The position numbers and the translations under genes were made by a program. This document shows, piece after piece, positions 4,834-38,291 of a DNA stretch of 64,000 nt; position 1 is the stretch's first letter; every line of letters starts with the position of its first letter. The notes under the pieces were generated by a model. It saw only the letters and a list, made by a program, of their open reading frames with translations, had not been told where the DNA came from and did no database searches. This stretch comes from Hyphococcus sp. (lineage in GTDB: Bacteria; Pseudomonadota; Alphaproteobacteria; Caulobacterales; Parvularculaceae): NCBI GenBank assembly GCA_028284345.1, contig JANQRY010000007.1, forward strand, positions 5,269 to 69,268. The letters run 5' to 3'.

Positions 4834-6075
4834 ATGTCGACTGACGTTTTCCTCAGCTATTCGTCGAAAGACCGGGACAAGGTCCGCCAGATCGTCGCCG
4901 CGCTTGAAGACGCCAACCTCTCCGTGTGGTGGGACCGCGAAATCGGCGCCGGCGTCATGTTCGAACGCAAGATCGAAGAAGCGCTCGACAACGCCAAATG
5001 CGTCGTTGTCGTCTGGTCGCGCGACTCCGTGGAGTCGGACTGGGTGCGCGCCGAAGCCCATGAGGGCCTCTCCCGCGGGGTGCTGGCGCCGTTGATCATC
5101 GACGATGCGAAACCGCCGCTCGCCTTCCGCCAGACCCATCACGTCAAGCTGAACGAAGGGGTGGACGCGCTGGTCGGCGAGGTTCGCCGTATTGTCGCCG
5201 AGAACGAAAAGGAGCCCGACCTTTCTGCACGCGTTCACTATGTAACGACGCCGGATAATGTGAGGCTCGCCTATGTGCGCCAGGGTGCTGGCCCGTCAGT
5301 TGTCAGAAGTCTCGGCTGGTCGACAAGCTGTGCGCTTGAGCTAAGCGGCGAAAACGCCCTGACCAATGCGCTCATCCGTGATTTCGATTTTATTTCCTAT
5401 GACGGGCGCGGCGGCGGCATGTCGGCGCGCGGGGATTTCAAGTGGTCGATCGAAGAACGCTTATGCGACCTTGAAACGGTGATCGACGCGGCGGACCTGA
5501 AAGAAAAGTTCGTCCTTTTCGGCATTTCCGAAGGGAGCCGCGCTGCGATCCTTTACGCTGACAAATATCCGGAGCGCGTCTCGCATCTCGTGCTCGATTC
5601 GCCGTCCCTGCCGTTCATTAATCCCGGTAAAGACGACTACGCATCGATGGCGTGGCTTGTCGACTTTGTGCGCGATCATTGGGGTACGGAAAACCCGCTT
5701 GCGAGCCGGATGATTTGTTCCATCTGGAGCCAGTCGGCGACGCCGGGAGAGCAACGCACCTTCATGCGCCGCCAGCGTGAAAGCATGAGCGCGGAGGCGG
5801 CGTCGCGATATATTTATTTAACGGGAACGCAAAATCTCGACCCGGGGCTGTCAAACCGCATCTGGAGCGCCGTCGCCGCCTTGAAAATCCCGACACTGGT
5901 CTTTCACACGATTGACGATCCGCTGGCGGCGTACGATCTTTCAAAGAAACTGGCGGAAACGGCGCCTAATGCGGAACTCGTGACGTCAACGCTGCCCGAT
6001 CATGGATGCGTCCTCAGCGCGTCTTTTTCGCGGCTGCAGGCGAAGGAAGTGCGGCGGTTTGTTTTAGGGCGCTAG
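4834..6075 (+). CDS. TIR_2 domain fused to alpha/beta-hydrolase
   Basis: N-terminal DVFLSYSSKDR...VWWDREI...CVVVVWSRDSVESDWVRAEA is a TIR. C-terminal YDGRGGGMS, GISEG nucleophile elbow and YPERVSHLVL. Confidence 0.88.
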   Translation: MSTDVFLSYSSKDRDKVRQIVAALEDANLSVWWDREIGAGVMFERKIEEALDNAKCVVVVWSRDSVESDWVRAEAHEGLSRGVLAPLIIDDAKPPLAFRQTHHVKLNEGVDALVGEVRRIVAENEKEPDLSARVHYVTTPDNVRLAYVRQGAGPSVVRSLGWSTSCALELSGENALTNALIRDFDFISYDGRGGGMSARGDFKWSIEERLCDLETVIDAADLKEKFVLFGISEGSRAAILYADKYPERVSHLVLDSPSLPFINPGKDDYASMAWLVDFVRDHWGTENPLASRMICSIWSQSATPGEQRTFMRRQRESMSAEAASRYIYLTGTQNLDPGLSNRIWSAVAALKIPTLVFHTIDDPLAAYDLSKKLAETAPNAELVTSTLPDHGCVLSASFSRLQAKEVRRFVLGR

Positions 6076-6106
6076 CCCCACCGAAAACCAGTTGATCTAA
6101 TTCCCG

Positions 6107-6220
6107 CCCTCATCCTGAGGAGGGCGCGTCAGCGCCCGTCTCGAAGGATATGTGGCAGGCGCTGTGCTCGCGGCTGATCCTTCGAGACGCAAGGCTTCGC
6201 CTTGCTCCTCAGGATGAGGG
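6107..6220. repeat. Palindromic REP/RPE-like element (CCCTCATCCTGAGGAG...CTCCTCAGGATGAGGG)
   Basis: 16-bp terminal inverted repeat, inner GTCTCGAAGGA/TCCTTCGAGAC stem and two side hairpins. It lies between convergent genes. Confidence 0.85.
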
Positions 6221-6271
6221 TGGCGCGTGGATCAAGGCAGCTTCGATACGCTCTAAGCGGCGGCCCTCGCG

Positions 6272-7198
6272 TCAGGAGATCCCAAACTTCTCCAGCGCGG
6301 CTTTTGCAATCGGCTCGCCCCATTCCTGGACGAAATGGCCGGCCTCGGCGACCTCCATCGGTTCCGGACAATTGCGGATGATCTTTTTGAGGATGTGCAT
6401 CGCCTTGGGGCCGAGCACCGGGTCCTGCATGCCGATGGCCATGAAACTGTCGCCGGTCCAGTCCTCTGACCAGAACTGCCGCGCCTTGAGCGAGGTCTCG
6501 ACGCCTTCCGACGACAAGGGCGTTAAGTCCTTGCCTTCCTCTTTCAACATGACGAGTTCCGGGAAGCGGCGCACGCCGCCTTTGTAGGACTGATCCGGGA
6601 AGGGCGCGTCATAGGCGGCGGCCTCCGCATCGGAAAGGATCGGCGTCGCCCGTTTCATCAGCCCGCCGACGTTGAGATCGGGATTGGCGCGGTTGAAGGC
6701 GCGCCATTGGGCGAAGCCCTGGCCCGCTTCCTCGCCGCCCGGGAGCCCCGTATTCATGACGATGAGCCGCGTATAGCGCTCGGGCGCGGCCATGGGCAGG
6801 GTGAGGCCGAGAAGCCCGCCCCAGTCCTGCACGACGAGGCAGACATTTTTAAGGTCAAGCTTCTCGACAAAAGCGAGGAGGGCGTTCCGATGAAAATGAT
6901 AGGTGTAGGTCTCATCGTCGACCGGCTTGTCCGAGCGTCCGAAGCCGAACATGTCGACGGCGACGGCGCGATGGCCGGCTCCCGTAAAGACGGGGATCAT
7001 CTTGCGGAAAAGATAGGCCCATGACGGTTCGCCGTGGATGCACAGGAAGGTAACGTCTGCATCTGCGGGGCCCGTGTCCGCATAATGCATGCGCAGACCC
7101 TCGTAGCCCTTGAGGTCATCTACATAGTTCGGCGCATAATCCCAGCCGGGGAGGTTGTCGAACCGGTCGTCGGGGGTGCGGAGCGCTTCAATGGTCAT
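6272..7198 (-). CDS. Haloalkane dehalogenase, DhlA-like
   Basis: LRTPDDRFDNLP, HGEPSWAYLFRKMIP, VVQDWGG (nucleophile Asp followed by Trp) and AGHFVQE. Confidence 0.88.
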   Translation of the reverse strand: MTIEALRTPDDRFDNLPGWDYAPNYVDDLKGYEGLRMHYADTGPADADVTFLCIHGEPSWAYLFRKMIPVFTGAGHRAVAVDMFGFGRSDKPVDDETYTYHFHRNALLAFVEKLDLKNVCLVVQDWGGLLGLTLPMAAPERYTRLIVMNTGLPGGEEAGQGFAQWRAFNRANPDLNVGGLMKRATPILSDAEAAAYDAPFPDQSYKGGVRRFPELVMLKEEGKDLTPLSSEGVETSLKARQFWSEDWTGDSFMAIGMQDPVLGPKAMHILKKIIRNCPEPMEVAEAGHFVQEWGEPIAKAALEKFGIS

Positions 7199-7210
7199 GG
7201 GGAGTTTCCT

Positions 7211-7606
7211 TTAGCTGGTAAGGCGCAACGCCATCATGATGAGGCCGACAAAACCGGCGAGCCACATGAGCGTGCGCAGGCCGAAGACGCCGAAGAAATA
7301 GGCCGGCAGATAGGCCGCCCGGGCGATCACGAAAACCAGCGCGCCGGTGAGCGCTATGCCGTCCGCCTTGTCGGTGATGATGAGGAGCAGGGCCAGCGGC
7401 AGGAAGAAAAAGAGGGCCTCTTCCATATTGCGCTGGGCGCGGCCGCAGCGCTGCGCGCTGACGGACTTTTCCAGCACCGTGTCGCGGGGCCCGAGGCCGA
7501 CGACGAGGAGGTTGCCCTCGCCCTTGCTGGAATTGAGTTTCAGGACGGCGTGAACGGCGACATACGCGAAATAGAGAAGCAACGCCCAGAGAATATAACT
7601 GATCAT
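7211..7606 (-). CDS. MAPEG family membrane protein
   Basis: Multiple hydrophobic segments, RAQRNMEE, ARAAYLPAY and RTLMW. Confidence 0.8.
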   Translation of the reverse strand: MISYILWALLLYFAYVAVHAVLKLNSSKGEGNLLVVGLGPRDTVLEKSVSAQRCGRAQRNMEEALFFFLPLALLLIITDKADGIALTGALVFVIARAAYLPAYFFGVFGLRTLMWLAGFVGLIMMALRLTS

Positions 7607-7735
7607 TTTGTCTCTCCTCGGTTTGCCGGGTTTCCTTGCCCGGTCTCGCCGCTATAGTCGCGCCGAATGCGGCCGTCGCCAAGCGCCGGCGACAGTTGCC
7701 CCTTAGGATGAGGGACAGAGAAGAAAAGGGAAGAC

Positions 7736-9163
7736 ATGACCGATCATTCCGTAGATCTTGTCGTCATCGGCTCCGGCCCCGGCGGATATGTGGCCGCCAT
7801 TCGCGCCGCGCAGCTGGGGATGAAAACCGCCATCGTCGAGCGCGACGCCCTCGGCGGGGTCTGCCTCAACTGGGGCTGCATCCCGACCAAGGCGCTGCTC
7901 CGGACGTCGGAAATCTACACCAACATGAAGCACGCCGAGGCGTTCGGCCTCAAGGCGGAGAATATCGGCTTCGATATTGAAAAGGTCGTGAAACGCTCGC
8001 GCCAGGTGGCGGGCAAGCTTTCCGGCGGCATCGGTTACTTGATGAAGAAGAACAAGATTGCCGTGATCGAGGGCGAGGCGACATTGGCCAAGGGGCCGGG
8101 CGGAACGGCCGGCGCGCCGCTTGTCAAAGTGAAAACCAAAGACGGTGAGGATACGGTCAAAGCCAAGCACGTGATCCTTGCGACCGGCGCCCGGGCGCGC
8201 ACGATCCCGCAAGCGGGGTTAGAGCCCGACGGCAAGTTCATCTGGACCGCAAAAGAAGCCATGGTCCCCGATGTTATGCCGAAGTCGCTCCTCGTCATCG
8301 GCTCCGGCGCCATCGGCATCGAGTTTGCGAGCTTTTATCGCGCGTTGGGCGCCGAAGTGACCATCGTCGAAATGCTCGATCGCATCCTGCCCGTGGAAGA
8401 CAAGGAAATCTCCGCCTTCGCCGATAAGCAGTTCCAGAAGCAGGGCATGAAAATCCTGACCTCAGCGCAGGTGGAAAAGCTCGACACAGGTGGAAAGCTT
8501 GCCAAGGCGACCATCAAGATGAAAGACGGCAAGACCGAGACCGTGGAGGCCGAGCGCGTGGTGCTCGCCGTGGGCATTGTCGGCAACACGGAGAACATTG
8601 GGCTTGAGGCGGTGGGCGCCAAGGTCGAGCGTGGCCATATCGTGGTCGACGAATGGCTGTCGACCGGCGTGCCCGGTCTCTATGCGATTGGCGATGTCGT
8701 CGGCGCGCCCTGGCTTGCCCACAAGGCGTCTCATGAAGGAGTGATCTGTGTAGAGAAGATCGCCGGCGTCAAGGACGTCCACCCCTTAAATGTCGCAAAT
8801 ATTCCGGGCTGCACCTATTGCCAGCCGCAGATTGCCTCGGTCGGCCTCACCGAAGACAAGGCGAAGGAGCAGGGCTACAAGGTCAAGGTCGGCCGCTTCC
8901 CCTTCAATGGCAACGGCAAGGCGATCGCGCTCGGCGAGCCTGAGGGCCTTGTCAAAACCGTATTCGATGAAAAAACCGGGGAACTGTTAGGCGCCCACAT
9001 GATCGGCGCCGAAGTCACCGAACTCATTCAGGGCTTCGGGCTGGCGCGTTCGGCCGAACTCGTCGAACAGGATTTGATGCACGCCATCTTCCCGCATCCG
9101 ACCCTGAGCGAGATGATGCATGAAAGCGTCCTGGATGCGTATGGACGCGTGATGCATATATAA
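7736..9163 (+). CDS. lpdA: Dihydrolipoyl dehydrogenase (E3)
   Basis: GSGPGGYVAA, GGVCLNWGCIPTK redox disulfide, GSGAIG and HPTLSE. Confidence 0.97.
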   Translation: MTDHSVDLVVIGSGPGGYVAAIRAAQLGMKTAIVERDALGGVCLNWGCIPTKALLRTSEIYTNMKHAEAFGLKAENIGFDIEKVVKRSRQVAGKLSGGIGYLMKKNKIAVIEGEATLAKGPGGTAGAPLVKVKTKDGEDTVKAKHVILATGARARTIPQAGLEPDGKFIWTAKEAMVPDVMPKSLLVIGSGAIGIEFASFYRALGAEVTIVEMLDRILPVEDKEISAFADKQFQKQGMKILTSAQVEKLDTGGKLAKATIKMKDGKTETVEAERVVLAVGIVGNTENIGLEAVGAKVERGHIVVDEWLSTGVPGLYAIGDVVGAPWLAHKASHEGVICVEKIAGVKDVHPLNVANIPGCTYCQPQIASVGLTEDKAKEQGYKVKVGRFPFNGNGKAIALGEPEGLVKTVFDEKTGELLGAHMIGAEVTELIQGFGLARSAELVEQDLMHAIFPHPTLSEMMHESVLDAYGRVMHI

Positions 9164-9164
9164 T

Positions 9165-9224
9165 CGTCATCCCGCGCGCGGCGCGCAGCAACATTTCATG
9201 TTGCGGCGCAGAACCGGGATGACG
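9165..9224. repeat. Short palindromic element (CGTCATCCCG...CGGGATGACG), possible terminator for lpdA
   Basis: 10-bp terminal inverted repeat with internal GCAACAT/ATGTTGC stem, starting 1 nt after the lpdA stop. Confidence 0.65.
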
Positions 9225-9301
9225 CGTTTGGCGGCCTTGGCTGGTGTTTCCGTCGGGCCACACCCGGGGCAACAAACGGCGCCGCGGGCCTCCCGCGACG
9301 G

Positions 9302-9330
9302 TTGCATTTCCGCCTGCAACAGCCCATATG
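9302..9330 (+). promoter_or_regulatory. Putative sigma70 promoter of cspA, giving a long 5' UTR
   Basis: TTGCAT-N17-CATATG about 130 nt upstream of the csp ATG. Long leaders are typical of csp genes. Confidence 0.4.
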
Positions 9331-9462
9331 GCGTCCGCGCCCATGATTGAAGGCCGTATACGGGCCTTGTTCTGCAAGATTCTACACCCCTCCAAACATC
9401 GGCAGCACTAAAAGGGTCCGAACGATCTGGATCCCCCACGCCTGTTTGAAAGGACTAACATC

Positions 9463-9669
9463 ATGGCGACTGGAACAGTGAAATGGTATAACGCCCAGAA
9501 GGGTTATGGCTTCATCGAGCCGTCCGACGGCGGCAAGGATGTTTTCGTCCACGCCACGGCGGTTGAGGCGGCGGGTCTGCGCGGCCTCAATGACGGCCAG
9601 CAGGTCAGCTACGAGCTGCAGGAAGACCGCGGCAAGACGTCTGCCGGTAATCTGAAAGCCGTCGAGTAG
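9463..9669 (+). CDS. cspA: Cold-shock protein
   Basis: GTVKWYNAQKGYGFI (RNP1) and DVFVHA (RNP2). GAAAGGA SD. Confidence 0.97.
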   Translation: MATGTVKWYNAQKGYGFIEPSDGGKDVFVHATAVEAAGLRGLNDGQQVSYELQEDRGKTSAGNLKAVE

Positions 9670-9781
9670 TTTTTTCGGGCGTTTTGCCCTGAACGACTGA
9701 TGAGGGCGGATCGGCGTCGCAGGGTTTCCCGCGACAAGCCGGTCCGCCTTTTTCTTGTGCGACGCGCAAAGGCGCGCGGCG

Positions 9782-10414
9782 CTATTCTTTCTTGCGGACC
9801 GTTGCGCGCTTCGGCTTTTTCTCCGCCGCATCGCTGCCGCCGGTTTCGACAAAATCAATCTCGGCTGTGCCGGCCGCGTCGCCGCCGCCGGCGACCTCGA
9901 CGAAGTCGATTTCAGCCGTTCCGGCCGAATGGGTCGATGAACTGATCTTGTTGTAATAAAACGCGACTTCTTCCGTAGGCCGATCATCGGCGTCGCCGCT
10001 GGTCGACCAGCTCTTAACGAAGCAGCGTTCCAGCTTGTATTTAAGATAGGCCCGGGCGCCGCCATCCGCCGGCGTTGCGAATTCCAGCACCGGGATTTCC
10101 GTCTTGCCGCGATAGGCGCGCTGCAACGCATCGCGCCCGGCAAAGCCTTTGGGCAGGGTGAGGGTGACGGTTCCGGCGTCTGGCGGCGATGCGGTTCCGC
10201 CGGTCGCGGCGGCAAGGGCGCTGCTGGCGGCGCCTGCGCGCGTCGCGGCGTCCCATTTAACGTCGAGCACTTCGACGCCGCCAGCAGGCGCTCCGGCGCT
10301 TTTCGATTCCCCGTCAATGTCGGGGATTTTCAGATAGCCGGTCATGGCCGCCGTCGCAGGCGCCGCCGCCAGGCACAGCGCCGCCGCGATCAGCGCGGAT
10401 TTCAACATGTTCAT
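9782..10414 (-). CDS. hcp: Hcp (type VI secretion tube) family protein with N-terminal signal peptide and C-terminal extension
   Basis: GYLKIPDIDGES and YLKYKLERCFVKSWSTSGDADDRPTEEVAFYYNKI match the N- and C-terminal Hcp signatures. Strong SD (GGAGGAGGGAG) precedes the first ATG. Confidence 0.8.
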   Translation of the reverse strand: MNMLKSALIAAALCLAAAPATAAMTGYLKIPDIDGESKSAGAPAGGVEVLDVKWDAATRAGAASSALAAATGGTASPPDAGTVTLTLPKGFAGRDALQRAYRGKTEIPVLEFATPADGGARAYLKYKLERCFVKSWSTSGDADDRPTEEVAFYYNKISSSTHSAGTAEIDFVEVAGGGDAAGTAEIDFVETGGSDAAEKKPKRATVRKKE

Positions 10415-10517
10415 GGGTCTCCCTCCTCCACGATGGTCAAGGCGATGAGCCTAGCCGATCGGGTGCGCGAAGTCGAAAACGCCGCCCCAGTAAGGGCGAG
10501 CAGCGGCGCAGGGACCC

Positions 10518-11321
10518 TCAGTCCCGCAGCCCGTAGGTCATGAGCCGTTTGCCGACAGCCTGGTCGATCACCCGGAAGCCGTGGCCTTCAAGGATTGCGC
10601 GGCAGGCTTCGTGGGTGCGCGCGCCCTGGCGCTCGGCCCCGGTGTCGAGGGCGACGGCGCGGGTGCGGGCGAGCATCGCCGCCGCGCCCTCAAGCACCTC
10701 CGGCTCCGCCCCTTCCGCATCGCATTTCAGAAGGTCGATATGGGCGATGGCGTTGTCGGCGCAGAACCGGTCGAGGGTCGTAGCGCGGCGCGTTTCCGAC
10801 GGCGCCGCGTTTGCGGCGAAGACGGAACTGTCCGCATGGTCGGGGATGGAGGCGAAGGGCACGTCCGCCTCCTCCTTCCAGAGTAGGGCGTCATGGGCCG
10901 AAGCGTTGGTCAGGGTAAGGATGTTCTGCGTCAGGCAGGCGCGGACGGCGGCGTCGGGCTCAAGGCAAAAGACCCGCGCGCCGAAGCGGGCGCAGACATG
11001 GGCGAACTCGCCGGCGTTGGCGCCGGCGTCGATGACGATGCTGTCGGCGGCGAGCTCCGCATGACGGCCGACGCCGTACTCCGCCGCCAACTGGTCAAGG
11101 CGCGCCGTCCACCCCTTGCGATAGAGCTTCCAGCGATAGGGCGAGGGAACGATGAAGCGCCCGTCGGCGACGATGACTTCGGCGCCGAGGGGGTGGGGTG
11201 CGAGCGCAACGCGCACATGCCCGCGCACATGCGCCGCGGCGAGCAGATCCTGGCGAAAGAGTTTCCAGCGGATCTTGAACGGCAGTTGAAGGGTGCGGTC
11301 GGGGTCAGGCGCAGTGCGCAT
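10518..11321 (-). CDS. FkbM family methyltransferase
   Basis: IDAGANAGEF, CLEPD, TLD and LLKCDAEGAE. Confidence 0.88.
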   Translation of the reverse strand: MRTAPDPDRTLQLPFKIRWKLFRQDLLAAAHVRGHVRVALAPHPLGAEVIVADGRFIVPSPYRWKLYRKGWTARLDQLAAEYGVGRHAELAADSIVIDAGANAGEFAHVCARFGARVFCLEPDAAVRACLTQNILTLTNASAHDALLWKEEADVPFASIPDHADSSVFAANAAPSETRRATTLDRFCADNAIAHIDLLKCDAEGAEPEVLEGAAAMLARTRAVALDTGAERQGARTHEACRAILEGHGFRVIDQAVGKRLMTYGLRD

Positions 11322-11345
11322 TGAAAACGGTCCCTGCGGCGGCGC

Positions 11346-12134
11346 CTAACGGCGCACAAATTTACGCACCTGCATCTGGATCGGGCCGTCGGCGCGTCCG
11401 TGTACGAACTGGTCGACCATCGGATTGCCGGAATCGTTGAGTTCGTCCGGCCCGCCGCGCCAGATGATGACGCCCTGATAGATCATGGCGACTTCGTCGG
11501 CGATCTTGCGCGCCGAGGCCATGTCGTGGGTAATGGAGATGGCGGTCGCGCCGATGGCTTTGACGCGGTCGACGATCAGATTGTTGATGACGTCGGACAT
11601 GATGGGATCAAGACCGGTGGTGGGTTCGTCGAAGAATAAAATCTGCGGGTCCGAGGCAATGGCCCGGGCGAGGCTAACGCGTTTCTGCATCCCGCCGGAA
11701 AGTTCCGACGGGCGTAAGTCGCCCACCTCTGGCGCCAGTCCCACCTGGGCGAGGCAGTCGATGGCCTTTTTCTTTGACGCCCTGCGGCCGCCCCGCTCGC
11801 CATAGAGGAGGCGAAACGCGACATTCTCCCAGACGCTTAAGGAATCGAATAACGCCGCGCCCTGAAACAGCATGCCGGTCTGGGCGGCGACGAATTTCTT
11901 GTCTCTCGCCGATTGCCGCGCCACTTCGCGCCCGTCGACTTTTATCGACCCGCGATCCGGCTTGACGAGACCCAGGATGCTTTTCAGGAGCACCGACTTG
12001 CCCGACCCCGACCCGCCAATGATGACAAGAGACTTGCCAGCCGCAATGTCGAGATCGATCCCGCGCAGGACGTGGTTCGCGCCGAAAGATTTCTGCAAGC
12101 CCTGGACTTCGATTTTGACCGGCGTTTCGCGCAT
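11346..12134 (-). CDS. mlaF: MlaF/Ttg2A ABC transporter ATP-binding protein
   Basis: GGSGSGKS Walker A, LSGGMQKRV and FDEPTTGLDP. Start moved to ATG 12134. Confidence 0.92.
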   Translation of the reverse strand: MRETPVKIEVQGLQKSFGANHVLRGIDLDIAAGKSLVIIGGSGSGKSVLLKSILGLVKPDRGSIKVDGREVARQSARDKKFVAAQTGMLFQGAALFDSLSVWENVAFRLLYGERGGRRASKKKAIDCLAQVGLAPEVGDLRPSELSGGMQKRVSLARAIASDPQILFFDEPTTGLDPIMSDVINNLIVDRVKAIGATAISITHDMASARKIADEVAMIYQGVIIWRGGPDELNDSGNPMVDQFVHGRADGPIQMQVRKFVRR

Positions 12135-12138
12135 GGTT

Positions 12139-12912
12139 TCAGAAATCCACAAACAGCGAGGTGAGGACGTAGTTTGCGGCGAAAATCGAAACCGCCGCGG
12201 CGACGACGGCGGTGCGCGTCGCATTGCCGACGCCGGTGGCGCCGCCGCTTGAGCGATAGCCGTAATAGCAGCCGGTGACGGCGATGAGGAAACCGAAGAC
12301 CGTCGCCTTGATAAGGCCGCTGGTGACGTCCTCGGAACTGATGAAGTCGATCAGCGTGTTGATGTAAATCGGCGCCGACATGTCGAGGAGGTAGACGGAA
12401 ACGAGATAGCCGCCATAGACGCCGATAATGTCGGCGGTAAGGACGAGCAAGGGCATGGCGATGGTCGTGGCGAGCACGCGCGGGCCCACGAGATAGCGGA
12501 ACGGGTTCACCGACAGTGTCGACATGGCGTCGATCTGTTCGGTGACGCGCATGGCGCCGATCTCCGCCGCCATGGCTGACGAACATCGCCCGGCGACCAT
12601 AAGCGCGGCGAGCACCGGCCCCAGCTCGCGCACGATCGAAACGCCGAGGATCTGCGGAATGAAGGCGTTCGCATCCGGGAAGATGCTGCCTTCGTAAATG
12701 TTGAGGGCGAGGGCGCCTCCGGTGAAGAGGGCGGTGAGGCCGACCACGGGGAGCGACGCATAGCCGATGCGCGCCAGCGCCTGCAGGAACGGCCGCCAGT
12801 AAAATGGCGGCGTTATCGCAGCGAACGCGCCTTCGATGGCAAAGTTCGTCATACGGCCGACCTCGCCAAGAACGTCGAGGCTGAGGCGGCCGACGGCGGC
12901 GATAGGGTTCAT
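12139..12912 (-). CDS. mlaE: MlaE/Ttg2B ABC transporter permease
   Basis: RELGPVLAALMVAGR, AEIGAMRVTEQIDA and GATGVGNAT. Confidence 0.93.
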   Translation of the reverse strand: MNPIAAVGRLSLDVLGEVGRMTNFAIEGAFAAITPPFYWRPFLQALARIGYASLPVVGLTALFTGGALALNIYEGSIFPDANAFIPQILGVSIVRELGPVLAALMVAGRCSSAMAAEIGAMRVTEQIDAMSTLSVNPFRYLVGPRVLATTIAMPLLVLTADIIGVYGGYLVSVYLLDMSAPIYINTLIDFISSEDVTSGLIKATVFGFLIAVTGCYYGYRSSGGATGVGNATRTAVVAAAVSIFAANYVLTSLFVDF

Positions 12913-12939
12913 CCGGCCGGTCCCGCTTGCATCCAGGCC

Positions 12940-14037: not shown

Positions 14038-14109
14038 GGGGGAAGCAGTAAGGAGTTTTTGTTTGGGAGCAAAGGGTCTGCCGGTGCAGCGCAACCTTCC
14101 AGCCCGATC

Positions 14110-14236
14110 TTCCCGGCGAAAGCCGGGATCCATGTTTCCGTGGGAGTATGGGAGAAAAGGAATCGAACGGTACGCGCAAACGGCTTACCGTTATCGAAAA
14201 AATGAACGCTTCTGGACCCCGGCTTTCGCCGGGGAG
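14110..14236. repeat. REP-like paired palindromes (CCCGGCGAAAGCCGGGATCCA ... TGGACCCCGGCTTTCGCCGGGG)
   Basis: Two inverted copies of a GAAA-loop hairpin about 80 nt apart in the dnaB-alr spacer. Confidence 0.82.
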
Positions 14237-28921: not shown

Positions 28922-28924
28922 GCT

Positions 28925-29446: not shown

Positions 29447-29447
29447 T

Positions 29448-30179: not shown

Positions 30180-30188
30180 GATTGAGCT

Positions 30189-31361
30189 TTACGCCGCCTT
30201 CAGCCCTTCGATGAACCGCCGGAAGATATAGAAACTGTCCTCCGGGCCGGGGGAGGCTTCCGGGTGGTGCTGCACCGACATGGCCGGCGCGTTGGTGAGG
30301 GCGATGCCGCTGTTGGAGCCGTCGAACAGGGAGACGTGGGTTTCAACCACATTGTCCGGCAGGCTTTCGCGGTCGACCGTGAAGCCATGGTTCATGGAGA
30401 CGATTTCGACCTTGCCGGTTTTGACGTCTTTGACCGGATGATTGGCGCCGTGATGGCCTTGCGTCATCTTTTTCGTCTTGGCGCCGGCGGCGAGAGCCAG
30501 CATCTGATGGCCGAGGCAGACACCGAAGGTGGGAACCTTGTTTTCGATCAGTTGACGGATCACCGGCGCTGCATATTCGGCCGTCGCCGCCGGATCGCCC
30601 GGACCGTTCGACAAGAGCACGCCGTCCGGCGCTTTCTCCATGATGTCGTCATAGGACGCTTTGGCCGAAACGACCGTCACCCGACAGCCTTCGCTGGCGA
30701 GGCGGCGCAAAATGTTCCGCTTGGCGCCGTAGTCGATGACCACAATATGCGGACCCGACCCGTCATGAACGCCGTATCCTTGTCCCCACGTCCATCCGGT
30801 TTCATCATGGGCGTAGGTTTGCAGTGTGGTCACGTCGCCGGCGAGGTCGCGGCCTTCAAGGCCCGCCCATTCGGCGGCGCGCTTTTGCATCGCCTTCACG
30901 TCAAAGGCGCCCGACGGCGAGTGCGCGATAACCCCGTGGGGCATGCCCTGTTCGCGAATCTGCGCCGTCAGCGCCCGGGTGTCGACGCCGGAGAGGCCGA
31001 TAATGCCGCGCCGGCGCATCCAGACCGAAAGATCCGTATGGGATCGATAATTGGAAGGGCCGGTGACGGGGCCGCGAAAGATGGCGCCGCGGGCGGCGCG
31101 CGCTGCGGCGGGCGAGGCGTCCTCGACGTCTTCGGTATTGACCCCGACATTGCCGATATGCGGGAAGGTGAAGGTGACGATCTGCGCCGCGTAGGACGGG
31201 TCGGTGAGGATTTCCTGATAGCCGGTCATCGCCGTATTGAAGCAGATTTCGCCCACCGCCTCGCCGACGGCGCCCCATCCCGCCCCGTAAAGCGTTGTTC
31301 CATCAGCTAAAACCAGCGCAGCGGTTGGTTTGCGGGCGGGTGCTTGACTAATGCGCATCAA
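30189..31361 (-). CDS. carA: Carbamoyl-phosphate synthase small subunit
   Basis: FNTAMTGYQE, SNGPGDP, GVCLGHQ and QHHPEASPGP. Confidence 0.98.
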   Translation of the reverse strand: MMRISQAPARKPTAALVLADGTTLYGAGWGAVGEAVGEICFNTAMTGYQEILTDPSYAAQIVTFTFPHIGNVGVNTEDVEDASPAAARAARGAIFRGPVTGPSNYRSHTDLSVWMRRRGIIGLSGVDTRALTAQIREQGMPHGVIAHSPSGAFDVKAMQKRAAEWAGLEGRDLAGDVTTLQTYAHDETGWTWGQGYGVHDGSGPHIVVIDYGAKRNILRRLASEGCRVTVVSAKASYDDIMEKAPDGVLLSNGPGDPAATAEYAAPVIRQLIENKVPTFGVCLGHQMLALAAGAKTKKMTQGHHGANHPVKDVKTGKVEIVSMNHGFTVDRESLPDNVVETHVSLFDGSNSGIALTNAPAMSVQHHPEASPGPEDSFYIFRRFIEGLKAA

Positions 31362-31592
31362 AGAATATCTGTTCCCTGCTGTTTCACGCGACTGCGAAGC
31401 GCGCGGACGCTTTCGGCGGGAGCCGAGCCGCGGCCCCGCGCAAATTGGCCGGAAGCTATGCGAAGGGGCCCATTTGGGTCAATAACGGATAAGCCTGAAA
31501 TTATCCAAACGAATCAAAACCCTCAAAAATAAACGGCCATGCGGCGCGAAATTTGCGTAGGCGCGGAACAGACGTTCGGAGAATCGGTAACA

Positions 31593-32051
31593 ATGCTCAG
31601 AGACAAAATTGACGAAGCGCTGAAAACGGCCATGAAAGCGAAAGACGACAAGCTGCGCGTCGCCACGCTTCGGTTGATCAACGCCGCCATCAAGGATCGG
31701 GACATCGCCGCGCGCGCGGAAGACCGCTGCAACGGGATTTCCGACGAAGAGATTCTCGCCCTTTTGACGAAAATGGTGAAGCAGCGCGATGAAAGCGCCG
31801 CCGCCTTTGAAAAGGGATGCCGCCCGGAACTCGCCGAACAGGAGCGGGCCGAAATCGAGGTGATTCGCGGCTTTCTCCCGCGCCAGCTTTCCGAAGACGA
31901 AATCAAGTCGGCGGTCAAAGACGTCATCGACGAATATGAAGCCTCAGGCCTCAAGGACATGGGGCGCTGCATGGGCGCCCTGAAAGAGCGCTTCAACGGC
32001 TCGATGGATTTCGGCCGCGCCGGCGAGTTGATGAAACAAAGCCTGAGCTAA
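31593..32051 (+). CDS. GatB/YqeY domain protein
   Basis: AMKAKD...LRLINAAIKD...MVKQRDESAAAFEKG...DMGRCMG. Start moved to 31593. Confidence 0.92.
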   Translation: MLRDKIDEALKTAMKAKDDKLRVATLRLINAAIKDRDIAARAEDRCNGISDEEILALLTKMVKQRDESAAAFEKGCRPELAEQERAEIEVIRGFLPRQLSEDEIKSAVKDVIDEYEASGLKDMGRCMGALKERFNGSMDFGRAGELMKQSLS

Positions 32052-32062
32052 AGCGGCTCGAC

Positions 32063-33937
32063 TTACGCCTGCTCCTTCGCCCGCTTCTTGCGCAAATGCG
32101 GTTTCAGGGCTTTCTTCCGTAAGCGGATAGATTGTGGCGTCACCTCCACAAGCTCGTCCTCGTCTATATAGGAAATCGCCTGTTCCAGCGTCCGGCGCGT
32201 GGGCGGGGTTAGCCGCACGGCCTCGTCCTTGCCGGCGGCGCGGATATTGGTGAGCTGCTTTCCTTTCAGCGGATTGACGTCGAGATCGTCCGCTTTCGCA
32301 TTCTCGCCGACGATCATGCCTTCATAGACGGTTTCGCCCGGACCGATGAACATGACGCCCCGCTCTTCGAGGTTCCATAGGGCGTAGGGCACGGCCGCGC
32401 CGTCGCCATTGGAAATGAGGACGCCGGTGCGCCGTCCCTCAATCGGGCCCTTATAGGGCGCATGGGCGAGGTACGATCGGTTCATGACGCCGGTGCCGCG
32501 GGTGTCGGTCAGGAAGTCGCCGTGATAGCCGATGAGCGCGCGTGACGGCGCGTGCATGATGAGCCGCGTCTTGCCCGCGCCGGACGGGATCATCTCCGCT
32601 AGCTCGGCTTTTTTCTGGGACAGTTTTTCAATGACGACGCCGGAATGCTCGTCGTCGACGTCGATGACGACTTCCTCGATAGGCTCCAGCACGGCGCCGG
32701 TTTCGTCGGTCCGGGTGAGCACGCGCGGCCGCGATACGGCGAGTTCAAAACCTTCCCGGCGCATGTTTTCAATCAGGACGCCGAGCTGTAGTTCGCCGCG
32801 GCCGGCGACCTCATAGGCGTCCTTCGATTCCGTTTCCGTCACGGTGATGGCGACATCGCCTTCGGCCTGACGCAACAGCCGTTCGCGAATGACGCGGGAC
32901 TGGACCTTGTCGCCTTCGCGCCCGGCGAGGGGCGAATCGTTTGCAGCGATGGTGATCGACAGCGTCGGCGGATCAATCGGCTGGGCGGGAAGGGGCGTAT
33001 CGACGTCGAGTGCGCAAATGGTGTCCGACACGGACGCTTTCGAGAAGCCGGCGATGGCGACAATGTCGCCGGGGAGGGCTTCGTCGACGGGCTGGCGCTT
33101 CAGTCCGCGAAAGGCGAGCACTTTCGAGATGCGCGCCTGCTCAACCGGGTCGCCGGTGCGCGACAGCGCCTTGATGGTTGTGTTGGGTTTGGCGACGCCG
33201 GCGATGATGCGCCCCGTCAGCAACCGGCCGAGATAGGGGTCGGCTTCCAGCGTCGTCGCCAGCGTGCGCAAGGGCGCGTCTGCGCCGCCTTCGATCTCCG
33301 GCGCCGGCACATGGGAAACGACGGCGTCGAACAGGGCATTGAGGTTCTCCCGCGGGCCGTCCAGCGCCGTCGCGGCCCAGCCGTCGCGGCCGGCGGCGTA
33401 GAGCACCGGAAAGTCGAGCTGTTCGTCATTGGCGCCGAGGGCGGCGAACAGATCGAAAGTCGCATCAAGGGCGCGATCGGGCTCGGCGCTCGGGCGATCG
33501 ACCTTGTTCAGAACGACAATCGGTTTGAGGCCCAGCGCCAGCGCCTTTGAAAGCACGAACTTCGTTTGCGGCATCGGCCCTTCGGCGGCGTCGATAAGCA
33601 GTAGACAGCCGTCGACCATGGAGAGGATGCGCTCAACCTCGCCGCCGAAATCGGCGTGACCCGGCGTATCGACGATGTTGATGCGGATGTCTTCGCCGCC
33701 CTGGTTTTCAGTTTGGCCGCCTTTGCGGCCGGGCCACACAACGCTGGTGCACTTGGCGAGAATGGTGATGCCGCGCTCGCGCTCGATATCGTTTGAATCC
33801 ATGGCGCGCTCGGCCATCTCGGCGCCGGCGCGCACGGCGCCCGACTGACGCAGCATCTCGTCGACGAGCGTCGTTTTGCCGTGGTCCACATGGGCGATGA
33901 TGGCGATATTGCGCAATGCTGAAAGGCTGCCTGTCAT
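32063..33937 (-). CDS. typA: Translational GTPase TypA/BipA
   Basis: [37 protein letters not shown] and NIRAAGKDE. Start moved to 33937. Confidence 0.98.
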
Positions 33938-34089
33938 AACGGCGCGCGGCGTGCCCGGTTTTTCCGCCCATTGCAAGCGGTTTGACCAAGGACGCCGGCT
34001 TGATTTGCCGCCTTCGCGGCCTCGCGCTATGTCCTTATCGTTCCGGATTTGCCTTTGACGCCGTTATCGGCCGGGGAGTCGCGCGCAAG

Positions 34090-36078
34090 ATGGCGCATAT
34101 TTTCATCAGCTACGCCCGCGCCGATCGGCCGACGATCGAAAAGCTGGCGAGCGTGCTTGAAAGCGCCGGGCACTCCGTCTGGTGGGACAGACATATTCGC
34201 GGCGGCGCAGCCTTTGCAAAAGACATTGAGGCGCAGCTTCAAAAAGCCGACGCTATTGTCGTCGCCTGGTCCGCCGCGGCGAATGAATCGGACTGGGTGA
34301 AGGACGAAGCGGTGTTCGCCCGCGACAAGGGCGTCCTGATCCCGATCTGTCTCGACGCTGCCGAGGCGCCCCTCGGTTTCCGCCAGTATCAGACCCTTGA
34401 GTTCGAAAAGTGGCGGGGCGACGCCGAGGCAAGCGCCGTTCAGTCGTTGCTCGGCGCCATTGCCGATCTCAGCGGGGCGGAGCGGCCGCTCGCGGCGGCG
34501 CCTGCGCCGACATCGTTTGCGGCGCGGGTGCAATCGGACAAGCGGTACTGGGCGGCGGCCGTTGTCGTCGCCATCGCGTTGATCGCCGGGATTTTCCTGC
34601 TGCGGGGCGCGCCGGCGCCGGATGTCGGCGGCGCGGCGGAAAGGGAGCGCAGCGCCGCGTCCGCAGAGAGCGCGCCGTCAATCGCGGTTTTGCCGTTCGC
34701 GGATATGTCGCCCGACGGCAATCAGGAATATTTTGCCGACGGCCTGTCGGAAGAGCTACTGAACGTTCTGGTGCGCGTCGACGGTCTGCAGGTCGCCTCG
34801 CGCACGTCATCCTTCGCGCTCAAGGGCAGGGTTTTATCGATTGCCGAGATCGCCGAGCGCCTTAACGTTGATCATGTGCTCGAAGGCAGCGTGCGCAAGA
34901 TGAACAACCGTGTGCGCATCACCGCGCAGTTGATCGACGCCAACACCGACAAACACCTCTGGTCCGAAACCTATGACCGGCATCTGTCGGACATCTTTCG
35001 CATACAGGACGAGATCGCGACGGCGGTTGTCGGCGCCTTGCGCGAGGAGCTGGGCATTGCCGATGATGCGCCGATCGAAATTCGTCCTGCGACGGAGGAT
35101 CTCACCGCCTACGACGCTTATCTGAAGGCGCGCGAACTGTATCTCGCGCGCGGGAAAGCGAATGTCGCCGAATCCATGCGTCTTTTTGAGCAGGCGGTTG
35201 AGTTGGACCCGAGATTCGCCCGCGGATGGGAGGGGCTCGCCGGCGTCTACGCCATTGCCACGAGCTGGGGCATTCTTGACCGGGATTATTCGGCGATGTC
35301 GCTGGTGGCGGCGAAGAGAGCGCTGGAGATCGACCCGGATTTATCCGCGCCCTATGCGGTGATCGGGCTGACCTACCGCACCCACTATCCGACGCCATGG
35401 GCGGAATCGATCGACAATCTGCAAAAAGCGATCGAGCGCGACCGGAAGGCGACGGATCCCGTTCTCTGGCTCGGCATGAATTACGTGGCCGTGGGCGATA
35501 TTGACGGAGCGATTGAAACCTTCGGCAAATGTCTTGAGATGGACCCGGCCCATAAGCTTTGCCGCAAATATCGTTCGCTTTCCTATCTGACGAAAGGCGA
35601 TACGCGGAGAGCCGTCGCGGACGCCACGATCAACGCGGAAGTTGGATATTACTCCGACTTCGACGCCTATATCCCGCATTTTCTCGGCAGGGGCGAGCGG
35701 CTGCTCGCGTTTACGATCTCGCGCACGGTCAACTGGTGGTCGAATTTTCCGCATCAGGAACTCATCGCAGCAATTGAAGACGGCGATAATCCGTCATCGG
35801 AACGAATTCAGAAATTCATGCGATGGGGCGCCGATCAGAACGTCAAGGTCAGGAGCCACGCCCACACCATGTTGACCATCCGCGCCTATGAAAACCTTAC
35901 CGTCGACAACTGGAACAATGATTATGAAATGCTGTGGCTGCCGCAGTTTTCGCATTTCCGCCAGTCGTCGGAATTTAAACAGCTCGCCGGCGATCTGGGA
36001 CTCACGGCCTATTGGCGCGAGCATGGCTTTCCGCCCCAATGCAGGGCGCTGGGCGACCTTGATTTCGAATGTAGCTAG
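34090..36078 (+). CDS. TIR_2 - TM - TolB-like - TPR membrane protein
   Basis: HIFISYARADR...WWDRHI...SDWVKDEA (TIR), TM YWAAAVVVAIALIAGIFLL, SIAVLPFADMS...EYFADGLSEELL (TolB_N-like), TPR-like helices and C-terminal YWR..GFPPQC...DFEC. Confidence 0.87.
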   Translation: MAHIFISYARADRPTIEKLASVLESAGHSVWWDRHIRGGAAFAKDIEAQLQKADAIVVAWSAAANESDWVKDEAVFARDKGVLIPICLDAAEAPLGFRQYQTLEFEKWRGDAEASAVQSLLGAIADLSGAERPLAAAPAPTSFAARVQSDKRYWAAAVVVAIALIAGIFLLRGAPAPDVGGAAERERSAASAESAPSIAVLPFADMSPDGNQEYFADGLSEELLNVLVRVDGLQVASRTSSFALKGRVLSIAEIAERLNVDHVLEGSVRKMNNRVRITAQLIDANTDKHLWSETYDRHLSDIFRIQDEIATAVVGALREELGIADDAPIEIRPATEDLTAYDAYLKARELYLARGKANVAESMRLFEQAVELDPRFARGWEGLAGVYAIATSWGILDRDYSAMSLVAAKRALEIDPDLSAPYAVIGLTYRTHYPTPWAESIDNLQKAIERDRKATDPVLWLGMNYVAVGDIDGAIETFGKCLEMDPAHKLCRKYRSLSYLTKGDTRRAVADATINAEVGYYSDFDAYIPHFLGRGERLLAFTISRTVNWWSNFPHQELIAAIEDGDNPSSERIQKFMRWGADQNVKVRSHAHTMLTIRAYENLTVDNWNNDYEMLWLPQFSHFRQSSEFKQLAGDLGLTAYWREHGFPPQCRALGDLDFECS

Positions 36079-38291
36079 GCCGCCGCGCGCCGTGTTCGCG
36101 GATTGACGTTGCGCAGGATCAGCGCTCGCCACGCCCAGCGCAGGAGCGCCAGGATCGTCGCCGGCACAAACGCAATGGTGAGCCAGAGCGCCAGCGCTTC
36201 GGCGGGGAGCGCGGAGGCGATCAGCAGCCCGGCGTAAGCGGCGACGGCAAAGAGCGAAACGACAACAGCGACGCGCGCAACCGGGCGCAGGCCGACGATC
36301 CAGAAAAAGCCTTTAAACAGTAACGCGATCAGCAACAGGGCGAAGGCGATGACGAAACCCTTCGCCAGCAAGTACAATCCACGCCCCGGGTCTTTTGCAA
36401 AGTTCACCGGCACCGGCGCTTGGCTGGAGACGAAGGCCGGCGGCGTATCGATCGCCATGGGAAGGTCGATGGCGGAATCGATGTGGCCCATGGTGACGCG
36501 GTTCTCGCCGTCCGCCGCGCGCCAGATGCGCGCCGTATTGTCCCGGGAGCCGGAAACGATCCACTCGCCGTCGCTTGTTGAGTCGAGACCGCGCACGCCG
36601 TCCTTGTGCCCTTCCAGTTCGCGCGCCATGGCTCCGGACGCGATGTCCCAGACGCGAATGACGGGATCAACGCCGCTCGTGGCGAGGACGGCGTCGCCGT
36701 CCGCAAAGGCCACCGAGAAGGCCCGCTCTGCGCCGTGGTTGAGGCTCGTCACAAGGTTGTTGTCGATGGTGCGCCAGACCCGAATGACGCCGTTGTCGGC
36801 GGCCGCGGCGAACATCGATCCGTTATTGGAGAACTTCACGTCATTGCCCGGCCCGCCGATGGACAGGGAGACGAGGCGCGCGCCGGAACGCCAGTTCCAG
36901 AGCGACACCGTGCCGTCGGCCGAGGCCGCCGCCAGAATGTCGCCGTCCGGGTGGAAATCGACCGCGTTGATATCGTCTACATGAATCGAAAGCGTGCGCA
37001 GCCGGTCGCCGGTTTCTGGATTCCAGAGGATAATCAAATTGTCGCTCGACGCGGTCGCGACCGCGGCGCCGTCCGGCGACCAGGCGACGTCGTAAACGCT
37101 GGCGCCGTGGCCGCTCAGCGTCGTGATGGGTTTTGCGTTGCCGGTGTCCCAGACAATCGCCGTGCGGTCGCGCGACGCAGAGACGGCGCGAGCGCCGTCC
37201 GGCGAGAAATCCGCGCCCCAAATCCAGCATTTGTTTTCATCATCGGCGCAGTTTTCCTTGTGACCGACAAATTCGCCCCGTTCGACCCCGGTCGCCGCGT
37301 CCCACAGCTTGATCGTATTGTCGTCGGATGCCGTCACGACATAACGCCCGCTCGCATCGAATGTAACGCTGTTGATGTCGGCGCCTTCGATGCCTTTGAC
37401 CTGCACCCCTTCGAGCGCGGCCGCATAGATGCGGCCTTCAAGAACGAGGGGCGAAATGGTGATCAACGAAAACAGGATGAGCGCAATATAAGATCGCGGC
37501 AGCAAGGCCAGCGAGGCGGCGCCGGCGGCGCGATCGGCCTCCAGCGTTCCGTACCGTGACAAAAAGGCGAGAACGCCCATGGCCGCGATGAAAATCGGGC
37601 GGTAGGCCGCGAAGACAAAGTCAGACGCATAGGCTAGGGCGCCGAAGGCGGCGGCGATCAGCACCGCCATGAACACGGCCTGACCGAACAGCGCCAGGCG
37701 CCGGCGCGAACCCGTCGTCGTGTATTTGGACGCGCGTTTTGAAACCTTGGACGGCGATTTGCGCGCCGGCTTGGGTTTCGTTTTCGGCTTTGGGGGCGGA
37801 ACGGGTTTGGGCTTTTCCGCTTCCGGCGCCGGTTTCGGTGCTTCCGGCTCGGGCTGCGGCTCAGGTTCCGGCCGGCGGTCCGGCGCGCCGGCGCCCGCTT
37901 TTGCGCCCTCGGCGACGGCGTCGATAAACGCCTTGAACGCATTGTCGTTTACATTGCCGCGCCAGTGGGTGAGGTCCGCCGTCTGAATCTGCCGAAAGCC
38001 GAGCGGTATATCCACGTTGTCGATGAGCGCCGGAAAGAGAATATCACGCGCCGCGCCTTCGTCCGCTTCGTCAGCGACGAACCGCGAGGCCACGGAATGT
38101 CGCGACCAGATGACGATAACGGACCGCGTGGAACTCAGCGCTTCGGAAATTTCCTGGCGAAAGCCTGCGCCGGTTTTGATTTTCGGGTCCCACCAGACGT
38201 GGAGGCCCTTTTGGCCGAGCGCGTTTGCGATCTTCTCGACCTTCGCGCGATCCTCGCGCGAATAGGAAATGAATACGTCGTGATGCCCCAA
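36075..38291 (-). CDS. TIR_2 - Pro/Lys linker - 3 TM - 7x WD40 - 3 TM membrane protein
   Basis: DVFISYSREDR...WWDPKI...SRFVADEA (TIR). Seven WD repeats end in IKLWD, AIVWD, IILWN, VSLWN, IRVWR, IRVWD and ARIWR. Two clusters of three hydrophobic segments. Confidence 0.87.
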   Translation of the reverse strand: MGHHDVFISYSREDRAKVEKIANALGQKGLHVWWDPKIKTGAGFRQEISEALSSTRSVIVIWSRHSVASRFVADEADEGAARDILFPALIDNVDIPLGFRQIQTADLTHWRGNVNDNAFKAFIDAVAEGAKAGAGAPDRRPEPEPQPEPEAPKPAPEAEKPKPVPPPKPKTKPKPARKSPSKVSKRASKYTTTGSRRRLALFGQAVFMAVLIAAAFGALAYASDFVFAAYRPIFIAAMGVLAFLSRYGTLEADRAAGAASLALLPRSYIALILFSLITISPLVLEGRIYAAALEGVQVKGIEGADINSVTFDASGRYVVTASDDNTIKLWDAATGVERGEFVGHKENCADDENKCWIWGADFSPDGARAVSASRDRTAIVWDTGNAKPITTLSGHGASVYDVAWSPDGAAVATASSDNLIILWNPETGDRLRTLSIHVDDINAVDFHPDGDILAAASADGTVSLWNWRSGARLVSLSIGGPGNDVKFSNNGSMFAAAADNGVIRVWRTIDNNLVTSLNHGAERAFSVAFADGDAVLATSGVDPVIRVWDIASGAMARELEGHKDGVRGLDSTSDGEWIVSGSRDNTARIWRAADGENRVTMGHIDSAIDLPMAIDTPPAFVSSQAPVPVNFAKDPGRGLYLLAKGFVIAFALLLIALLFKGFFWIVGLRPVARVAVVVSLFAVAAYAGLLIASALPAEALALWLTIAFVPATILALLRWAWRALILRNVNPRTRRAAA

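Follow-up and report, generated by a model that had tools for sequence, protein, structure and literature searches.

Sensor-linked TIR proteins dispersed in a Parvularculaceae genome and a candidate effector that they may share

The stretch of DNA presented above, 64,000 nucleotides from Hyphococcus sp. (GenBank assembly GCA_028284345.1, contig JANQRY010000007.1, positions 5,269 to 69,268; this whole stretch is called the window below), contains three genes, here named A, B and C, whose products start with a TIR_2 domain and continue into unrelated partner modules. An earlier reading made from the letters alone (the sequence-only reading) had proposed that these TIR domains belong to a lineage-specific expansion, that they are used like one-component signalling systems, and that they possibly converge on a shared nucleotide messenger or adaptor encoded elsewhere. 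The question posed by the locus is whether the three proteins work on their own or as inputs to a common pathway. We tentatively favour the second answer i.e. that several sensor-TIR proteins (A, B, C and a fourth, D) may feed one Thoeris-like effector, S, a membrane protein with an SLOG-like N-terminal domain and SLATT-type transmembrane (TM) regions. We infer this mainly from other lineages, in which homologs of S adjoin genes of the same TIR subfamily and co-occur with them.

Three TIR_2 genes and their partner modules

A Pfam profile search found N-terminal TIR_2 domains (PF13676) in three open reading frames (ORFs) of the window, all of them scoring far above the curated gathering threshold of 28 bits that defines membership of the family (Table 1). 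Compared in pairs, the three TIR domains show 36-40% identity, and in the alignment all three contain every element of the motif quoted in the sequence-only reading (FxSY..D, VWWD, G, WS, S.WV..EA, L.P and P.GFRQ), which had described them as related modules. Its description of the setting was also borne out: the genes lie among housekeeping genes rather than in a defence island, with ilvE-like, pepA, methyltransferase, VOC-family, second alpha/beta-hydrolase and lpdA genes around A, and with B and C placed between carA, yqeY and typA, at one end, and dnaG and rpoD, at the opposite end. No ThsA, Argonaute, STING or CBASS gene adjoins any of the three, and no mobile or defence genes were found near them. 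That as many as three copies fall within 64 kb is largely explained by the conserved adjacency of B and C; the chance of A falling in the same window, given four other copies in 3.4 Mb, was ~0.15, which is not significant.

B and C encode membrane proteins. The likely start of B is the ATG at 34090, in an ORF that opens at 33982, and the protein has one hydrophobic segment (residues 153-171). Its module on the predicted periplasmic side is 45-50% identical to thousands of proteins of ~605 residues, in which a short TM anchor replaces the TIR domain. For C we used an AlphaFold2 model built on 27 orthologs, which placed the TIR domain at residues 1-132, disorder at residues 135-182 and helices at residues 194-294 and 635-729, with a propeller of 28 strands (seven blades, residues 306-602) modelled at a predicted local distance difference test (pLDDT) score of ~95. 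As basic residues flank the cytoplasmic ends of C, the positive-inside rule predicts that the propeller is periplasmic, and the topology predicted for B, C and D is the same i.e. a cytoplasmic TIR domain with a periplasmic TPR or WD40 module. Among the families detected in A-C there was no STAND NTPase between the TIR domain and the repeats; a linker with three TM helices (C) or a single TM helix (B) is found there instead.

The TIR domain is the best conserved domain of both B and C among orthologs (for C, 80-94% versus 57-88% for the WD40 domain), and ~45 positions of the C domain are invariant across orthologs down to 48% overall identity. The gene order rpoD-dnaG-C-B-typA is kept in 11 of the 14 informative Marinicaulis loci; C is kept without B in three of the 14, and unrelated genes lie between C and B in three loci. 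These exceptions, and the convergent orientation of the two genes, led us to reject a functional operon of B and C. Their stop codons overlap in the window, and this overlap is not conserved, relatives showing gaps of 6-120 bp or inserted unrelated genes. Among congeners the identity of C (62-89%) and of B (59-87%) is similar to that of DnaG (65-92%), and the GC content at third codon positions (GC3) of B and C is native. The full architecture of C reaches other Parvularculaceae at 44-56% identity, with the TIR domain kept in every full-length homolog. Recent horizontal acquisition (recent acquisition of polyphyletic, inactive TIRs had been named in the sequence-only reading as grounds for abandoning its proposal) and residence in a defence island were therefore rejected for B and C, due to their native-looking synteny, divergence rate and GC3.

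Gene A encodes a soluble protein, a scan for hydrophobic segments having found no TM segment in it, in which the TIR domain is fused to an alpha/beta-hydrolase. The hydrolase triad (Ser232-Asp362-His390) is intact and aligns with those of solved esterases, and it is kept in all of the homologs of this module that we examined, including those fused to adenylate cyclase, BTAD or LuxR domains (~30-34% identity). The recurrence of the module with TIR, cyclase, BTAD and LuxR domains suggests that it serves as a ligand-sensing input domain, and it agrees with the earlier view of the TIR domains as modular heads on unrelated partners. The G-x-S-(E/Q)-G, Asp, His signature of the module (window positions 5239-6072; P0026, P0041 and P0048) can be followed through these fusions.

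Close orthologs of A were found in only two of 40 congeners, with one more at 34% identity, and the GC3 of the hydrolase half of the gene is only mildly lower (0.674). The VOC-family gene just upstream remains adjacent to A in two close orthologs (G359 and G013) and not around the more distant ones; it may be co-transcribed with A, and its membership of the system is uncertain. The restricted distribution of A, together with the absence of B from three of the 14 loci that keep C, indicates that the three genes are not an obligate set.

Catalytic residues and spread of the TIR subfamily

The TIR domains are probably NAD-cleaving, judging from alignments and structure models. Glu74 of A, which belongs to a WxxxE motif in helix alphaC, aligns with the catalytic Glu of AbTir, BtTir and BtpA, and the sequence DWVRAE of A aligns with DWTNYE of AbTir. 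The catalytic Glu was present in 170/170 members of the subfamily, the aromatic residue of WxxxE was W in 89% and F in 11% of them, and F6, S8, Y9, W32, D34, W61 and E74 were invariant or nearly so across these 170 relatives. An AlphaFold2 model of the TIR domain (pLDDT 93.2) gave as its best Foldseek match 7UXU, the AbTir filament bound to 3AD, a mimic of nicotinamide adenine dinucleotide (NAD+), with a template modelling score of 0.77 and a root-mean-square deviation of 2.5 A. The next structural matches were SARM1, BtpA, BtTir and PdTIR, and the TIR domains of MAL and MyD88 were also among the matches. It is the combination of an invariant Glu, an NADase-like fold in the model and a conservation of the TIR domain that exceeds that of the other parts of B and C which makes catalysis likely.

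An alternative is that the TIR domains are non-catalytic assembly modules, which oligomerise or recruit partners in the manner of animal Toll-like receptor adaptors. The ~45 invariant positions in the TIR domain of C exceed the needs of catalysis and suggest interaction surfaces, one TIR gene of this genome (E, see below) keeps fold motifs without the catalytic residue, and MAL and MyD88 are among the fold matches. However, we consider this explanation very improbable, as the Glu is kept in all 170 of the aligned subfamily members together with the aromatic residue of WxxxE, and as the nearest structures are NADases.

The copies in the window are not the only ones. The genome contains six TIR_2-like genes i.e. 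A, B and C and, elsewhere, D, E and a TIR-APAZ gene (Table 1). The TIR domain of E has lost FxSY and VWWD, and Gln replaces its catalytic Glu. The sixth TIR lies beside a short pAgo, as expected of SPARTA, an arrangement that none of A-E shows. In this SPARTA-type pair the pAgo gene overlaps the TIR-APAZ gene, and the flanks comprise a ParB-like gene, a gene for a 966-residue type IIG-like methylase/restriction protein and a relaxase gene; it is the one TIR of the genome that sits in a defence or mobile island.

Counting and phylogeny, the checks that had been suggested for the proposed expansion, gave a mixed answer. A tree of 171 TIR domains assigned A, B (together with D) and C to three distinct clades, all of them with good support and each with an architecture of its own; REC-, FGE- and kinase-linked TIR clades of other organisms fell between them. 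This result indicates that A, B and C are old, distinct members of the subfamily and not the products of a recent burst. A recent expansion within the genome was also rejected on the basis of identities, since A, B and C are less similar to one another than they are to TIR domains of other taxa that have other architectures (50-62%). The motif is the signature of a large, global TIR_2 subfamily (9,585 clusters at 50% identity match its profile at E<=1e-30) and is neither a chance resemblance nor private to this genome. The subfamily is patchy, being found in 18 of 300 evenly drawn other Alphaproteobacteria and mostly in one copy, and Marinicaulis has a mean of 4.6 TIR_2 genes per genome (range 0 to 20), with at least two copies in 28/36 congeners. 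The expansion therefore stands as an enrichment of the genus and falls as a burst specific to the lineage. One congener carries a tandem, receptor-like array (locus L062, G034:C222, 6814-17227) of five back-to-back TIR-TM-TolB/TPR genes on the same strand, their stops and starts touching or overlapping, with a short TIR-only gene upstream.

Other members of the subfamily bear on what the TIR domain does within these proteins. REC-TIR genes follow genes for several periplasmic binding proteins, a dCache-HAMP-GAF histidine kinase and a lone REC protein, and this operon setting places the TIR domain as the output of a two-component pathway. From these operons and from the module swaps described above, we infer that the TIR domain acts as a signalling output. 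The architectures themselves combine input and output in one polypeptide without phosphotransfer domains, so that the one-component-like use proposed in the sequence-only reading fits them. The REC-TIR response regulators are of ~275 residues (loci L060 and L061, gene at 6001-6830) and lie behind ABC_sub_bind genes.

The same data can be read in terms of defence. According to this explanation the TIR genes are ordinary anti-phage genes that happen to reside in the core genome: some would be single-protein TIR-TPR/TM systems of the E. coli TIR-II kind, others would form a Thoeris pair (type VII or type III-like), and all would act by abortive infection. E. coli does gain phage protection from single-protein TIR+TPR and TIR+TM systems (PMC11350192), defence by TIR+SLATT has been validated (bioRxiv 10.64898/2025.12.03.692087), copy number in the genus varies from 0 to 20 and includes tandem arrays, and one homolog lies beside AbiE, AEP and ResIII genes. 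PADLOC placed A-C in no known defence system, which we rejected for these genes; its weak matches were confined to the TIR region and were all to defence TIRs. Set against this, known phage sensors work inside the cytoplasm, whereas a periplasmic position is predicted for the sensors of B, C and D, and these proteins contain no STAND NTPase. Throughout the genus B and C have a fixed place between dnaG and typA; they diverge about as fast as DnaG, their GC3 is native and no mobile or defence genes lie nearby, whereas the real defence TIR of the genome, that of the SPARTA-type pair, sits in just such an island. We consider this explanation improbable. Points that favour a role in signalling are the prediction of periplasmic sensors, the siting in core-genome loci and the existence of REC-TIR operons; points that favour defence are the variation in copy number and the published precedents.

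Gene S and its links to the TIR subfamily

If the TIR domains generate a signal, a receptor for it may be encoded outside the window, and a search for stand-alone effectors had been suggested in the sequence-only reading. Profile searches of the genome found no match to SIR2_2 or Peptidase_C14, none to Macro (the control rang in 8/14 genomes) and none to STALD, which is a weak negative because its control rang in no control genome. By these profiles ThsA, which would indicate type I Thoeris, was found neither beside a TIR gene nor elsewhere in the genome, and no Macro or caspase-like effector of the kind seen in types II and IV lies beside a TIR gene. A single CHAT (caspase-like) protein, membrane-anchored and of ~767 residues (C7:543094-545397), is not encoded near any TIR; a secreted trypsin-like serine protease (546542-547450) is encoded near the CHAT gene and is likewise not adjacent to any TIR.

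What the search did produce is S, which is encoded next to E. Its matches to SLATT families are borderline (DUF4231, a SLATT-clan family, 24.9 bits with a cut-off of 24.7; NCBIfam SLATT_1, 40.1 bits with a cut-off of 41, and so just below it). The N-terminal 190 residues contain strongly conserved GVTGHR, LAxGAD and WDG..G.GGT motifs and gave only sub-threshold Pfam matches, to Nuc_deoxyrib_tr (0.032), YpsA (0.015) and YAcAr, all of which belong to the TIR-DrHyd-SLOG class (defined in PMC9503650). Profile and sequence searches of PDB sequences with this N-domain found nothing.

The order comM, S, E was found in 12/12 congener loci and in 22 NCBI loci, and in other lineages S homologs adjoin further TIR genes. 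The S homolog of Alphaproteobacterium M2410, which is 40% identical to S, is followed after 90 nt by a C ortholog in the same orientation. In Parvularcula lutaonensis the S homolog and a C ortholog converge, with 13 nt between them; since that genome has no TIR_2 gene other than this C ortholog, the pair would represent a minimal, two-gene version of the system. A TIR-FGE gene lies just upstream of the S homolog in a metagenome-assembled genome of the Parvularculaceae, a tandem-TIR gene neighbours it in Chlorobiaceae and a TIR-TPR gene in Dehalococcoidales, and two Alphaproteobacteria have a TIR-FHA gene directly against a gene that encodes the S N-domain alone. The direct juxtaposition of an S homolog with a TIR-3TM-WD40-3TM ortholog of C spans 5743-9921 in P. 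lutaonensis KCTC 22245 (locus L105) and 5908-10071 in locus L102. In loci L115/L116 (4967-6693) the TIR-FHA gene (334 residues) is immediately upstream of the N-domain-only gene (308 residues), in a genome with 23 TIR_2 genes.

Co-occurrence agrees with these neighbourhoods. The S N-domain was found in nine of the 300 Alphaproteobacteria, and six of those nine contain the TIR subfamily, as compared to 18/300 overall (Fisher p = 1.5e-6; 2.6e-5 once genera are collapsed), and two of the co-occurring genomes have the S N-domain and TIR genes 0-3.4 kb apart. Among the genomes of the genus, 19/41 contain S and all of these are TIR-rich; in the complete genomes that lack S the number of TIR_2 genes is 0-4 and the B-C pair is missing. 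S is thus a candidate for the partner encoded elsewhere that had been postulated from the window alone.

In the mechanism that we propose, A, B, C and D would be self-contained sensor-TIR fusions, A being soluble, with its catalytic-looking hydrolase as the input domain. A stimulus at the sensor would cluster the TIR domains, completing an NAD+-cleaving active site, and the TIRs would then release an NAD+-derived nucleotide, probably of the cyclic ADP-ribose type. This nucleotide would be read by S, a single membrane protein encoded elsewhere, through which a change in membrane permeability would lead to growth arrest, death or ion flux, while E, with its dead TIR domain, would act as a scaffold or regulator. 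A-D themselves, and not merely a TIR that neighbours S, would feed the effector, and their signals would converge on one messenger, so that the whole would be a hub-and-spoke, chromosomally dispersed relative of Thoeris. A more specific version of this proposal is an outside-in TIR pathway of the Parvularculaceae, in which periplasmic TPR/WD40 receptors with cytoplasmic TIRs, together with a cytosolic hydrolase-TIR, would report cues from the envelope or the environment to S through a diffusible NAD+-derived messenger, with the dead TIR as adaptor, serving physiology rather than, or besides, phage defence. We regard this version as rather unlikely.

Several observations weigh against a shared effector. 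None of A-D adjoins S in its own genome, and the sole TIR beside S is catalytically dead. The SLATT matches of S are borderline, and its SLOG assignment rests on motifs and sub-threshold matches. The association of S with the B-C pair within the genus (p = 0.0012) could reflect a single clade, A occurs in only 2-3/40 congeners, and 12/18 TIR-positive Alphaproteobacteria lack S, which indicates that the TIRs can work without it.

The last of these points also favours the main rival explanation i.e. that A-D are independent, self-sufficient sensor-NADases, each of which lowers NAD+ alone (as SARM1 and TIR-SAVED do), with no common receptor, and that S works only with E or is unrelated. The phyletic patterns of A, B and C differ from one another, and we found no conserved neighbours around TIR-TolB/TPR (B-type) homologs or around distant A orthologs and TIR-hydrolase homologs in other taxa. 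The lack of STALD, SIR2_2, Macro and Peptidase_C14 matches in the genome is in keeping with the same explanation. However, S homologs adjoin TIRs whose active sites are intact, C orthologs among them, in several lineages that are not related, and they also co-occur with the subfamily; moreover, with a dead TIR as the neighbour of S, some source of signal is required. We regard independent action as a real, if somewhat doubtful, possibility, and continue to prefer, tentatively, the feeding of S by several sensor-TIRs.

Two ORFs of the window gave no Pfam match, at 9382-10317 (minus strand, 311 residues) and at 42532-43347 (plus strand, 271 residues). The latter sits just after rpoD, where the GC content of the window is at its lowest (0.547 at 42001-44000).

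Table 1. Positions of the genes and domains discussed (window numbering; entries that begin with C7 lie elsewhere in the genome)
Feature	Position	Strand	Description	Profile match or basis
VOC gene	4373..4819	+	Glyoxalase/VOC-family gene, ends 14 nt before A	PF00903 31.3 bits
Gene A	4834..6075	+	Soluble TIR_2 + alpha/beta-hydrolase fusion, 413 aa	TIR_2 88.4 bits; Hydrolase_4; Abhydrolase_1
A, TIR	4834-5208	+		
A, hydrolase	5239-6072	+		
Gene B	34090..36078	+	Single-pass membrane protein, 662 aa	TIR_2 82.5 bits; TPR families; weak FlgO/TolB_N-like match
B, TIR	34090-34464	+	Predicted cytoplasmic	
B, TM helix	34546-34602	+		
B, TolB_N-like module	34645-35049	+		
B, C-terminal part	35050-36075	+	TPR plus Cys-rich C-terminus	
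B/C stop overlap	36075..36078		Palindromic CTAG; B TAG 36076-36078, C minus-strand TAG 36077-36075	Sequence read directly
Gene C	36075..38291	-	Polytopic membrane protein, 738 aa	TIR_2 80.3 bits; WD40 184.6 bits
C, TIR	37917-38291	-		
C, linker	37698-37916	-	Disordered, Pro/Lys-rich	
C, three TM helices	37443-37697	-		
C, WD40 propeller	~36432-37421	-	7 blades	
C, three TM helices	36135-36371	-	Followed by Arg-rich tail	
Gene D	C7:13798-15609		B-like architecture, TIR 56% identical to that of B	TIR_2 90.6 bits (six-frame search)
Gene E	C7:573703-575700		TIR-TM-FGE-sulfatase, degenerate TIR	TIR_2 20.1 bits, below cut-off
Gene S	C7:575859-577697	Same as E	SLOG-like N-domain + SLATT-type TM regions, 612 aa; 158 nt upstream of E (locus L069)	
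SPARTA-type pair	C7:508508-511473		Short pAgo + TIR-APAZ	pAgo_I 561.7 bits; Aga_TIR-PNTD 267.8 bits (PADLOC)

Comparison with known TIR systems

The closest systems to the one proposed here are two types of Thoeris. Type VII consists of a TIR protein, ThsB, and a SLATT effector, ThsH, with canonical cyclic ADP-ribose as the signal, and type III combines several TIRs with a SLOG effector (bioRxiv 10.64898/2025.12.03.692087). As in type VII, a TIR family is linked here by gene neighbourhood to a SLATT-type membrane protein (a borderline assignment), and as in type III there would be several TIRs with one SLOG-like effector. Unlike in Thoeris, the TIRs with intact active sites are encoded at dispersed core-genome loci, apart from the effector gene, and each is joined to a large sensor domain (predicted to be extracytoplasmic in three of them); in addition, the TIR beside S lacks the catalytic Glu, and S has an extra N-terminal SLOG/DrHyd-like domain. 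WD40 or periplasmic sensors are not mentioned in the study of type VII Thoeris (bioRxiv 10.64898/2025.12.03.692087).

At the level of the domain, the best sequence and structure matches are AbTir, BtTir, PdTIR and BtpA/TcpB (7UXU, 7UXR, 3H16 and 4C7M), which share the fold and the WxxxE motif. These proteins pair the TIR domain with a coiled coil or a short N-terminal region, however, and have neither a membrane-spanning sensor nor a hydrolase fusion. SARM1, as is proposed for A-D, unites in one polypeptide a sensor and a TIR NADase controlled by oligomeric state, in a role outside classical pathogen sensing, but it is an ARM-SAM-TIR protein that forms a cytosolic octamer and senses nicotinamide mononucleotide and NAD+, with no homology to A-D outside the TIR domain. 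E. coli TIR-II, compared here by its description, likewise has TIR and TPR in one protein and belongs to the most widespread type of TIR system surveyed (PMC11350192); B differs from it in its TM helix, its TolB-like periplasmic module and its conserved housekeeping locus.

The partner modules have relatives of their own. The ectodomain of B is shared with membrane proteins that are labelled 'adenylate cyclase' or 'TolB-like protein' in source databases and that have a short N-terminal TM anchor, without a recognised output domain, where B has its TIR domain. Similarly, compared with the fusions of its hydrolase module to cyclase, BTAD and LuxR domains, A has a TIR output in place of the cyclase or DNA-binding domain. 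In the literature we found no paper that describes TIR-TM-TolB/TPR, TIR-3TM-WD40-3TM, TIR-hydrolase or REC-TIR proteins as signalling devices.

Bacterial TIR signalling as described so far consists of compact defence operons in which sensing is thought to be intracellular. If the proposal made here is correct, the use of TIR chemistry for transmembrane, outside-in sensing would be new, as would the service of one effector to many dispersed sensors, and Thoeris-type immunity, ordinary bacterial signal transduction and the layout of Toll-like receptors would become linked. P. lutaonensis KCTC 22245, a culture-collection strain with a single TIR gene beside S, offers a tractable model.

In its outside-in version the system would be a bacterial counterpart of Toll-like receptor signalling, its minimal form being the TIR-WD40 gene and S of P. 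lutaonensis. Membrane features like those of Toll-like receptors seem to be absent from bacterial TIR systems (PMC11350192). The membrane proteins described here are predicted to share with Toll-like receptors a layout in which an extracytoplasmic sensor rich in repeats is joined across the membrane to a TIR domain in the cytoplasm, which is a matter of analogy and not of orthology. They differ from them in that the TIR domain is N-terminal, so that the order of the parts is inverted, in that the repeats are TPR or WD40 and not leucine-rich, and in that the TIR domain is probably an enzyme and not a scaffold.

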